From the IMG/VR virus record IMGVR_UViG_2534681935_000012: a stretch of 13,022 nt of DNA; one strand, given 5' to 3'. Shown piece by piece: positions 6,001 to 9,000 of the stretch (position 1 is the stretch's first letter; each line of letters begins with the position of its first letter). A program made the position numbers. This stretch comes from a virus. Taxonomy: Duplodnaviria; Heunggongvirae; Uroviricota; Caudoviricetes.

Positions 6001-9000
6001 AACGCCAAACGTGGACGGTTTCAGAGCGTATGTCAGGGCGTTTGTGCATCAGGCCAAGCCGTTTTACTTCGGAGACAACGACACGGGCTGGACGGCAGAT
6101 TTTGATTACCTGCTGAGGGAAGATTCGTTAACGGGAGTTCGGGAAGGGAAGTTTGCAGACAGGGGGATTGCATGAGACAGGATATCGAAGCTAGCGTTAT
6201 CGGTGGCCTGCTGATTGGTGGATTAACTCCAACCGCCAGTGACGTTCTGGCAACGCTGGAGCCGGAAGCGTTTTCAATTCCGCTCTACCGGAAAGCCTTC
6301 GAGGTTATTCGCAAGCAGGCGAGAAACAGAAACCTAATCGATGCGCTGATGGTTGCCGAGGCGTGCGGAGAGGAGCATTTCACGTCAATCCTGATGACCA
6401 GCAAAAACTGCCCGAGTGCCGCAAACCTGAAGGGATATGCCGGAATGGTCGCGGATAACTATCACCGCCGTCTGGTGCTGGAAATCATGGATGAAATGCG
6501 TGAACCAATCCAAAGCGGAACCATCGACGCATCGAGTCAGGCGATGGATGAACTTGTAAAGCGTCTTTCAGCCATCAGAAAGCCCCGTGACGAGGTTAAA
6601 CCTGTACGGTTAGGGGAAATCATCACTGACTACACTGACACGCTTGACAGGCGTCTGAGGAACGGAGAAGAGTCAGATACCCTGAAGACCGGAATCGAAG
6701 AGCTTGACGCTATCACTGGAGGGATGAACGCAGAAGACCTGGTGATTATCGCCGCTCGTCCTGGTATGGGGAAAACCGAACTGGCGCTGAAGATTGCCGA
6801 AGGTGTGGCAAGCCGCGTTATTCCTGGTTCTGACGTCCGGCGCGGGGTATTGATTTTCTCAATGGAAATGAGCGCATTGCAGATTGCAGAGCGAAGCATT
6901 GCCAACGCCGGGAGGATGTCGGTTAGCGTACTGCGAAATCCTGCATCGATGGATGACGAGGGCTGGGCACGTGTTGCTAACGGCATGAGTCAGCTTGCAG
7001 ATTTGGATGTATGGGTAGTCGATGCTTCGCGGTTATCGGTCGAAGAAATACGCTCAATCGCAGAACGGCATAAGCAGGAAAATCCAAACCTGTCACTCAT
7101 CATGGCGGATTATCTTGGCCTGATTGAGAAGCCGAAAGCAGACCGCAACGACCTCGCAATTGCTCACATCTCCGGAAGCCTGAAGGCGATGGCGAAAGAC
7201 CTGAAAACACCGGTTATCTCCCTGAGTCAGCTTTCGCGCGATGTTGAGAAGCGACCAAACAAACGCCCGACAAACGCAGATTTGCGTGATTCAGGAAGCA
7301 TTGAACAGGACGCAGACTCAATCATCATGCTCTATCGGGAAGCGGTATATGATGAGAACAGTAGCGCCGCGCCATTTGCTGAAATCATCGTGACGAAAAA
7401 CCGTTTTGGCTCGCTTGGTACAGTTTACCAGCGGTTCTGTAACGGACACTTTGTTGCATGTGACCAGGATGAAGCCAGACAGATTTGCACAGCATCAAAT
7501 GCACCTGCTGCGCGTGGCAGACGATATGCACAAGGGGCTGACGTATGACCATCTACATCACTGAGCTAATAGCAGGGTTATCGTTACTAATGGTTCTTAC
7601 TGTATATATTATTAAGTATATTCTTTATGCGAATAAAAAACTAATTGATCACGATGAGCTTCTGTCAACATTATCATATGACTCAGAAACAGGAATATTT
7701 AAATGGCTAAAAACAAATTCAGTAGTAAGAGTAAAAGGTAGTATTGCTGGAGGTGTTAGTGGTGGTTATATATGCATTAGTATAAATAATGTTTTGTATA
7801 AGGCGCATAGACTTGCTTGGTTCTATGTATACAAAAAATGGCCTCCTAAGTTTATTGATCATGTAAATGGGAACAGACTTGATAATAGGATTTCAAACCT
7901 AAGACTGGCAACAGAAGAGCAGAATGCAAGAAACATTGTAGGGAATAGATTAAACACATCCGGTGCAATTGGAGTGTCTTGGTATAAGCCAACTGGCAGG
8001 TGGAAGTCTTATGTTGGTTATAAAAATAAGACAATATCGTTAGGGTATTTCGATAGCAAAGAAGATGCAGCATTCATAGCAGCACTAGCAAGAAAGAAAC
8101 TATATGGAACTTATGCGAGTAAAGCACTTAATTGCGAGCATGAGCTTTTATCTCAATTTAATAATGATGAGGATAAACTTGCGGAATATCTTAAGGAAAA
8201 ATATAAAAGGACTCGAAAGCGTGTTAAAAAAAGATAAAGGCCTGCTGGTAATCGCAGGCCTTTTTATTTGGGGGAGAGGGAAGTCATGAATCTGGACAAG
8301 CAAGATGCACAAACTATTAGCTCATACATAAGGGCATCAAGACCAGATTACAAAGGTCCGGTATTCGTAGATTTATCTCGCCTTGAATAGATTTACATGT
8401 GGAAAGCAAGGTTACTTACGCATTTTGTTATTCGAACGATGACTAGCAACATTACAAAACCAATGTAACTGGAAGAGGTGAATATGAGCACACTCGCAGA
8501 CCTTATTCATGCCGATATGGCTGAAGATGGAGCAAGGCGTAATAGGTACTGGAAATCATCGAGCCTTCCAGTTTGTGAAAGATTCAATCACAGGCCAAAA
8601 CCAAAACGTAGCCGACGAGACAAAGTGTTGAAAAAACTCATGCAAATTAACATGGCTGGTTTTGTCAGATTCGTGAGTGAAACGACTAACGGTGATTGAT
8701 ATGGACGAATCAAGAAAGCAGTTTGAGGAATACGTTGCCAAAAAATTGAGATTACCATTCGAGATGATAACCGAGGCAAGAAATGGTGATAGGTACTTCG
8801 CATTTTCAAGCATGGATATTCGTCACTCCTTAAATGATTGGTGGGCTTTATGGCAGGCATCGCGAGCAGCTATTGAACTGGATATCGACTGGCCCGAATC
8901 GAATGACGACCTTTGGAAAGATGGTGAAGAAGGTGCTTATGCGATGGGTTATGAGGATGGGCGTGACAAAACGGTAATTGCAGTAATGAAAGCCATCAGG

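Follow-up and report, generated by a model that had tools for sequence, protein, structure and literature searches.

What is an AT-rich nuclease gene doing between the replication genes and the nin genes of a lambdoid prophage, and why does its predicted product start with a hydrophobic stretch? The question is raised by IMG/VR virus record IMGVR_UViG_2534681935_000012, a stretch of 13,022 nucleotides (nt), called the window below, which is the early region of a Shiga toxin (Stx)-converting lambdoid prophage of Escherichia coli O157:H7. Here an open reading frame (ORF) of 230 amino acids (aa), at 7545..8237 on the plus strand, combines an HNH nuclease core with an AP2-type segment. The first-pass annotation had described it as a single gene with its own terminator, part of a recently acquired element of homing-endonuclease type, and had explained the N-terminus either as an artefact of start choice or as a genuine membrane or targeting segment. 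We consider it quite probable that the locus is a homing-type HNH-AP2 cassette inserted in the ninA/tR2 region of the prophage, that it is normally read as a small ORF (sORF) followed by an ORF of 203 aa, and that the run of six adenines (A6) which joins the two in the window is an under-call.

The extent of the insert was determined by alignment with phages that lack it. Against Nil2, mEp213 and lambda, the cassette occupies 7577..8240 on the plus strand, which is 664 nt here and 665 nt in all relatives examined. The empty site in these three phages reads, from the overlap with the upstream stop codon, ATGACCATCTACAT(C/T)ACTGAG(C/T)TAATAACAGG and then, beyond the insertion point, CCTGCTGGTAATCGCAGGCCTTTTTATTTGGGGGAGAG; its counterpart in lambda is the stretch between ren and ninB, 40567-40647. 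The window matches the empty site with its left 32 nt (7545-7576) and with the part from 8241 onward, and when 7545-7576 and 8241-8284 are joined, lambda is restored from the ren stop to the ninB start save for 1-2 substitutions. What the cassette interrupts is a resident sORF of 25/26 codons of the ninA type, directly 5' of the lambda tR2 hairpin, whose C-terminal half is replaced by cassette-encoded residues. The sORF is annotated ninA in Nil2, and the 25-aa NinA matches phrog_5907 at 1.4e-18. Its remaining 5' part in the window, 7545..7576 on the plus strand, comprises the start codon and 10 2/3 codons and lies outside the insert; among phages given as lacking the cassette, the same 32-nt sequence follows the helicase gene in Nil2 and mEp213, and ren in lambda and PA28. 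The element is consequently bounded by 7577 and 8240 as aligned, and not, as had been assumed, by the ends of the ORF.

Two features that had been credited to the inserted gene turn out to be older than it. The TGA stop of the helicase gene does overlap the ATG at 7545 (ATGA, 7545-7548), but this overlap belongs to the ninA sORF and not to the insert. Similarly, a hairpin with a T-run is indeed present, but it is, by its sequence, the resident lambda tR2, identical in lambda and in the phages with an empty site. This intrinsic terminator was located by a terminator scan at 8236..8271 on the plus strand, with a stem of 10 bp, and it is named tR2 in the Nil2 annotation; CCTGCTGGTAATCGCAGGCCTTTTTATTTGGGGGAGAGGGAAGTCATGA is common to the window (8241-8289) and to the lambda ren-ninB region without a difference. 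The hairpin folds at -17.4 to -18 kcal/mol (-18.0 occupied vs -17.6 empty), the last bases of the cassette, AAAGG, re-forming and slightly lengthening its left arm, so that compared with lambda the stem is longer by A-U pairs, though the insertion leaves the fold practically as it was. Cassette-less phages also have the overlapping ATGA, the opening 11 codons and the terminator, which are therefore resident features of lambda type. As to the range of 7545-8268 originally assigned to the gene, the coding sequence ends at 8237, and the figure of 8268 takes in the terminator.

The composition of the cassette sets it apart from its surroundings. With a GC content of 0.335, it is the lowest-GC 665-nt stretch of the window (mean 0.462, standard deviation 0.042), and GC at third codon positions is 0.241 in the body of the HNH gene, compared with 0.538 in the helicase gene, where the overall GC is 0.523. 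The strong AT bias originally noted relative to both flanks is thus borne out on the helicase side; the genes immediately downstream are only moderately richer in GC (0.40-0.44), and values of 0.52-0.53 are reached in ninB and dam.

At the two junctions there is an imperfect repeat, recognised from the overlap of the blastn matches of the Nil2 empty site with both sides. Its left copy, ATAGCAGG, lies at 7569..7576, and its right copy, ATAAAGG, at 8234-8240. Because of this repeat, the insertion point is ambiguous within 8 nt. The right junction nearly restores the sequence of the empty site. At the fifth base 5' of the junction, G7572, all 20 occupied sites examined show G, whereas 121/122 empty ones show A; this linked single-nucleotide polymorphism (SNP) sits inside the 8-nt ambiguity and may be part of the insert rather than of a co-converted flank. 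The sole empty ninA/tR2 site with G (1/122) is locus L128, 5767-5876, where ATAGCAGG is joined directly to CCTGCTGG; the cassette may have been lost precisely here, or this may be the target allele in its ancestral form. Another option considered for the left end of the mobile unit was the point from which phage 1717/F349 matches, 7576. This match is explained by an ISEc8 insertion 8 bp inside the cassette of phage 1717 (L004 59-2500; window ~7577-7584), which has the target duplication GGTTATCG; it separates the sORF from the HNH gene and, in a BLAST comparison, looks like the edge of an element.

We now turn to the distribution of the cassette. The loci fetched comprise ~119 empty and ~20 occupied sites. 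The gap between the two flanking anchors is 0 in 103 loci, 665 nt in 17 and 664 nt only in the window, to which 16 variant empty sites have to be added. Eighteen loci that failed the right-anchor match were considered as carriers of other cassettes at this site, and proved to be sequence variants of empty or occupied sites. In 5426 complete E. coli genomes, the flanks are matched in 1968 and the cassette is carried by 126. Its position is identical whether the preceding gene is a DnaB-type helicase (Stx phages, HK022), ren (PA28) or an 89-aa ORF following a primase-helicase gene (locus L158), and at least 7 pairings of an upstream with a downstream flank type are seen with it, the majority of which also exist without it. 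Across the Traversvirus, Pankowvirus, HK022 and primase-helicase prophage backgrounds, the copies are at least 98.8% identical. Sporadic, near-identical copies at one site in mosaic backgrounds fit, at the level of sequence comparison, the classic signature of a recently spreading homing gene. Most related phages thus lack the gene, and its composition is atypical, where common possession with matching composition would have spoken for an old resident. The idea of an acquired homing-type element, with its HNH residues intact, is the part of the first-pass annotation that is supported.

The protein itself belongs to a well-defined architecture. The nuclease core, at 7797..7931 on the plus strand, matches Pfam HNH_3 (PF13392), an HNN-type His-Me finger, over its full length (1-46/46; aa 85-129) with E 3.6e-15 and 55.7 bits at a cut-off of 24.8, and shows the boxes HRLAW, WP, DH, DNR, NLR and QN; PHROG 99, 'HNH endonuclease', is matched at 9.2e-72. 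In window numbering, the residues D105, H106, N108, D113, N114, R115, N118, N127 and N130 are invariant in an alignment of 16 sequences, and the equivalent columns are conserved in one of 36; the catalytic residues align to the DH...N...N motif of I-HmuI. The AP2-type DNA-binding domain, at 7965..8108 on the plus strand, is less obvious from the single sequence, in which aa 141-188 match Pfam AP2 with 28.4 bits, under the cut-off of 33.3, so that only the HNH half of the original assignment is secured by a direct Pfam match. Many homologues have precomputed PF00847 matches, and the family profile finds the AP2/ERF structures of WRI1 (1.6e-10) and TEM1 (1.6e-5), and also ERF096 and AtERF1, as well as I-HmuI (1U3E) at E 1e-5. 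In the AlphaFold2 model, which has a pLDDT of 89.6, the AP2 part consists of strands at 112-137 followed by a helix at 140-158. The top Foldseek matches of the model are the AP2 domains of TEM1 and WRI1 (prob 0.97-1.00), and I-HmuI (1u3e_M) is matched with prob 1.00, E 1.3e-2 and a root-mean-square deviation of 3.8 A over 106 columns. As modelled, both the beta-beta-alpha metal-finger fold and the AP2 fold are present, and the sequence is that of a standard free-standing HNH(HNN)-AP2 endonuclease with intact catalytic residues. A related observation concerns P0004, a 171-aa protein from a 35.7-kb Logan contig, the first ~66 residues of which are identical to the endonuclease, while its nuclease core and AP2 part diverge; overall, 82% of the query aligns, at 62% identity. 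This chimera suggests recombination between HNH-AP2 genes.

It is worth stressing that the gene as such is already known. It is the same as HK022 gp57, Stx2-1717 gp29 and RefSeq WP_001220560.1; these and PA28 gp34 show 98.8-99.8% nt identity across the cassette and the same insertion point at tR2, and are annotated as 'HNH endonuclease', 'putative endonuclease' or 'homing endonuclease'. No biochemical characterisation of HK022 gp57, Stx2-1717 gp29, PA28 gp34 or WP_001220560.1 was found in the literature searched, where only general statements on HNH-AP2 proteins and on lambdoid HNH genes touch on the gene or the site. The combination of HNH and AP2 is a recognised homing endonuclease architecture (PMC10448857, citing Magnani et al. 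2004), and the motif boxes match the HNN-AP2 class reported for Xanthomonas phages (PMC2248197). That family (group I of phages Xp10, OP1 and Xop411, related to the IPA-HNH genes of ICP1) has the same N-terminal HNN His-Me finger, the same HRLAW, WP, DH, DNR, NLR and (E/Q)N boxes, no Cys dyads and a C-terminal AP2 domain, and its genes are likewise free-standing, sporadic and low in GC. They sit, however, between structural or early genes of lytic phages, whereas the window gene is found in temperate lambdoids, at a terminator and inside an sORF, and its product has an extra basic, helical C-terminal tail of ~40 residues. I-HmuI, a nicking homing endonuclease of the HNH type encoded in an intron of Bacillus phage SPO1, can be aligned with the window protein over the nuclease core and the beta-sheet DNA-binding region that comes before it, although the identity is only ~20%; I-HmuI has helix-turn-helix modules at its C-terminus, in contrast to the free-standing window protein with its AP2 domain.

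The hydrophobic N-terminus remains to be explained. In the window as given, the first ~30 residues are indeed hydrophobic, with a transmembrane-like stretch of 19 residues (mean Kyte-Doolittle hydropathy 2.19), and there is no in-frame ATG further in. HK022 and SH2026Stx1 annotate the same DNA as two coding sequences, a 105-nt sORF and then a 612-nt HNH gene in the +1 frame. The ATG of the 203-aa HNH protein, at 7627..7629 on the plus strand, is the annotated start in the RefSeq/GenBank records of SH2026Stx1, HK022, 1717, PA28 and MB9-1, and the N-termini of homologues align there; in the window it lies in frame +1 and reads only MRIKN* (5 codons). The difference is due to the A6 homopolymer at 7635..7640 on the plus strand, AATAAAAAACT, which is A7 in the relatives, HK022 gp57, Stx2-1717 gp29, PA28 gp34 and WP_001220560.1 included. 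With A7, the ATG at 7627 opens the 203-aa protein MRIKKLIDHDELL..., which ends 3 nt before the 3' edge of the cassette, and the ORF from 7545, 34 codons long, reaches 69 nt into the cassette and is closed by a TGA (7646..7648, plus strand) that is out of frame in the window. Because the run is one A short, the hydrophobic 34-codon sORF and the 203-aa ORF are fused into one of 230 aa.

The A7 form is the rule. It is present in 19/19 phage records that carry the gene, in 26 IMG/VR contigs against none with A6, and in 125/125 complete E. coli genomes spanning the site (as a one-gap match), and the 203-aa ORF is intact in 17/17 other cassette copies analysed. The protein family has more than 1600 members with a typical length of ~160-200 aa; their N-termini begin 3-10 residues before the motif DELLSxLxYDxETG, and a hydrophobic leader is found in 0/34 aligned homologues. 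On this sequence evidence, the gene model of the window is wrong, its hydrophobic start being the upstream sORF, which a 1-nt deficit has joined to the HNH ORF. There are two ORFs in every finished relative instead of one gene, and the N-terminus is explained by a deletion in a homopolymer, not by the choice of a start codon. We have also considered the continuation of the sORF into the cassette as a sign of selection, and rejected it: for 23 open codons at ~30% GC, the probability estimated from base composition is P ~0.15.

The question is then whether the A6 run is real. As reference we used the nearest finished genome, that of MB9-1 (O157:H7), which is identical to at least 11 others. Over 13 kb, the window differs from it by two substitutions, a deletion of ~141 bp near 3402 and three single-base deletions. 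All three are in homopolymers, T7->T6 (2522), A6->A5 (5121) and A7->A6 (7635), although the reference region has only 26 runs of at least six bases, ~1.2% of its positions. A Logan contig from SRR094161 has the ~141-bp deletion of the window together with the deficits at 5121 and 7635, and in addition two further deficits at other A6/T6 runs plus one in a T3 run, and it shows no substitutions. The common ~141-bp deletion suggests that the contig and the window come from the same strain lineage. Because this pattern of indels is the signature of homopolymer under-calling, the A6 run, and with it the fused ORF, is most probably an artefact of the source assembly.

The other differences from MB9-1 deserve a brief description. 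The A5 run at 5117-5121 (A6 in the reference) falls in cII (ORF 4878..5222), the last ~17 residues of which are replaced to give 114 aa, not 98; elsewhere, this 114-aa form is found only in 4 Logan contigs. The T6 run at 2517-2522 (T7 in the nearest finished genomes) is unannotated and lies between the minus-strand ORFs 2118..2300 and 2868..3389. The ~141 bp of MB9-1 and its relatives (L153 3403-3538) that are gone at window ~3398-3402 lay between short CTCT-type repeats and contain a terminator-like hairpin.

For the A7 form of the cassette, the following sequence of events can be proposed. The resident ATG, overlapping the upstream stop, would open the 34-codon sORF, the 203-aa endonuclease would be translated from the internal ATG, and the resident tR2 would end the transcript. 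Given its position upstream of tR2, the gene should be expressed from pR, along with O and P, at an early lytic stage. If the protein behaves like I-HmuI-type and HNH-AP2 endonucleases, its AP2 domain and N-terminal beta-sheet region would contact DNA, and in lambdoid genomes present in the same cell it would nick or cut the conserved ninA/tR2 site where this is empty; the cassette would then be copied in by recombinational repair. AP2 domains are reported to prefer GC-rich DNA, and a tract rich in G, GGGGGAGAGGG, is located directly 3' of tR2.

Several points weigh against this picture of a homing cassette with two ORFs and a mis-called run. Ordinary recombination through the conserved ninA/tR2 linkers of 32 nt and ~38 nt could give the same distribution, and the target, the type of cut and the mobility of the protein are what we infer from its relatives and its occurrence. 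Inspection of the sequence shows no recognisable Shine-Dalgarno motif at the HNH ATG at 7627; translation from this ATG, which lies inside the sORF, may be coupled to that of the sORF. As to the homopolymer, a Logan contig from SRR2187175, of the window's own lineage, has A6 as its sole difference over 4.6 kb. A second 230-aa allele, P0128, which differs by 13 nt, is found in another prophage lineage, with a Toprim primase-helicase gene upstream of the cassette; it occurs in one NCBI assembly and at least 20 SRA samples from several projects, and no other broken genes are visible there. The window's A6 could thus be a real slippage mutation.

This last alternative, a genuine replication-slippage mutation of the prophage, would leave the endonuclease fused to a hydrophobic leader of 32 residues, possibly membrane-tethered or inactive, or would mark a decaying homing gene, and decay would fit the usual homing cycle of invasion, fixation and degeneration. 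Since the P0128 allele stands in apparently clean assemblies, A7->A6 also occurs in nature, and this second allele led us to soften an initially purely artefactual interpretation. In the window's lineage, A6 is seen in three independent SRA-derived contigs, the clean 4.6-kb one among them, and A7, as the longest homopolymer class of the region, is also the most mutable. We nevertheless consider a genuine mutation unlikely. Two other homopolymers of the window are short as well, with damage to cII in one case; natural divergence would not typically give three single-base indels and just two substitutions in 13 kb; the SRR094161 sister contig, with its additional deficits, indicates that homopolymer lengths are unreliable in these data; and all 125 finished genomes have A7. 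The lineage in which A6 is apparently genuine carries a second, different HNH_3-AP2 gene of 170 aa between the Q antiterminator gene and the holin gene (L158 12454-12966, L159 11746-12258, L160 7184-7696), and this prophage thus has two cassettes of one family at two regulatory junctions.

A different scenario accepts the cassette and questions its homing. Here the gene would be a moron-like accessory nuclease gene, with a role, for example, in phage-phage or phage-satellite competition or in recombination, that entered ninA/tR2 once by illegitimate recombination and has since been moved only by homologous recombination at the conserved linkers. The ninA/tR2 block is a general mosaic junction, with many flank types that occur with or without the cassette, and an imperfect repeat of 7-8 nt at the junctions is what microhomology-mediated insertion would be expected to leave. 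Moreover, the right junction comes so close to re-creating the empty site that self-immunity is not obvious, cleavage by the protein is itself something that we infer, and a published caution speaks against deducing what a sporadic lambdoid HNH gene does from where it lies (PMC12315714). Set against these arguments, however, are a domain architecture and motifs that are those of the HNH-AP2 homing endonuclease family (PMC10448857, PMC2248197), the occurrence of copies at least 98.8% identical at one exact nucleotide, with at least 7 different pairs of flanks and in phages of 3 genera, and the linked flank SNP, which would fit co-conversion. A non-homing cassette therefore appears to us improbable.

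Much less credible still, and in our view very unlikely, is that the polymorphic run has a function. In one version, the A7 run, which starts 5 nt past the endonuclease ATG (the ATG ends at 7629, the run starts at 7635), would be a slippage or phase-variation switch: transcriptional or replicational slippage from A7 to A6 would toggle between a free but poorly initiated 203-aa nuclease and a 230-aa protein with a transmembrane-like leader, ATGA-coupled to the upstream replication gene. If true, such a switch would tune or restrain the dosage of the nuclease. In the other version, the cassette would give a functional NinA micro-protein a new hydrophobic C-terminus in place of its own. Both keep this small probability because A6 alleles recur in two lineages.

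Finally, the single 230-aa gene with its own terminator and a genuine membrane or targeting N-terminus is largely refuted and has next to no credibility left, since, for all that the ORF is open in the window, that its leader looks transmembrane-like and that some assemblies call the 230-aa architecture as a gene, none of the 125 finished genomes and none of the 19 phage records has the fused form, the leader is in none of the aligned homologues, empty sites already contain the first 11 codons and the terminator, and an open continuation of 23 codons is not unexpected in AT-rich DNA, whose T-rich codons give hydrophobic residues by default.

The surroundings of the cassette are those of a lambdoid early region. 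The gene order of the window is bet-gam-kil-cIII ... cI-cro-cII-O-helicase-[HNH cassette]-nin genes-ant, dozens of O157:H7 chromosomes match it over its full length, and 7000-9000 is 100% identical to Escherichia phages SH2026Stx1 and Stx2a_WGPS4 save for one gap. The gene upstream of the cassette, at 6172..7548 on the plus strand, encodes a DnaB-type replicative helicase (Pfam DnaB_C 9.5e-78, DnaB 4.5e-13) and is annotated as replicative DNA helicase in relatives. On the other side, the module of ~560 bp right after tR2 (window 8285-8848), which includes a 34-codon ORF at 8287 and a DUF7301 gene at 8478-8699, differs from that of the Nil2/2851-type phages (L001 Nil2 2122-2213) and is a second mosaic difference adjoining the cassette. 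Three Rfam matches over the gathering score were obtained in the window: the Lambda cIII thermoregulator element at 889-947 on the minus strand and, just upstream of the ant antirepressor gene, the isrK Hfq-binding small RNA (10771-10847, plus strand) and the C4 antisense RNA (10873-10956, plus strand). Within 7545-8268, Rfam gave no RNA element. When folded, the 5' 116 nt were no more structured than shuffled controls (z = +0.44), a promoter scan around the gene returned 3 sites vs 5.2 in shuffles, fewer than expected by chance, and the minus-strand ORFs at 7719-7862 and 7852-8073 are without support.

As regards the record itself, the value of these results is mostly one of annotation quality: with at least two homopolymer deficits besides that at 7635, ORFs called from the sequence need care. 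As regards the family, this is a known gene of a known kind, and current understanding is unchanged. What the locus offers is a standard HNH-AP2 cassette at one exact position of the lambda ninA/tR2 junction across several lambdoid genera, which makes lambda DNA around 40,598 the obvious candidate substrate for the uncharacterised enzyme, and the pair of them a simple system for homing between temperate phages.

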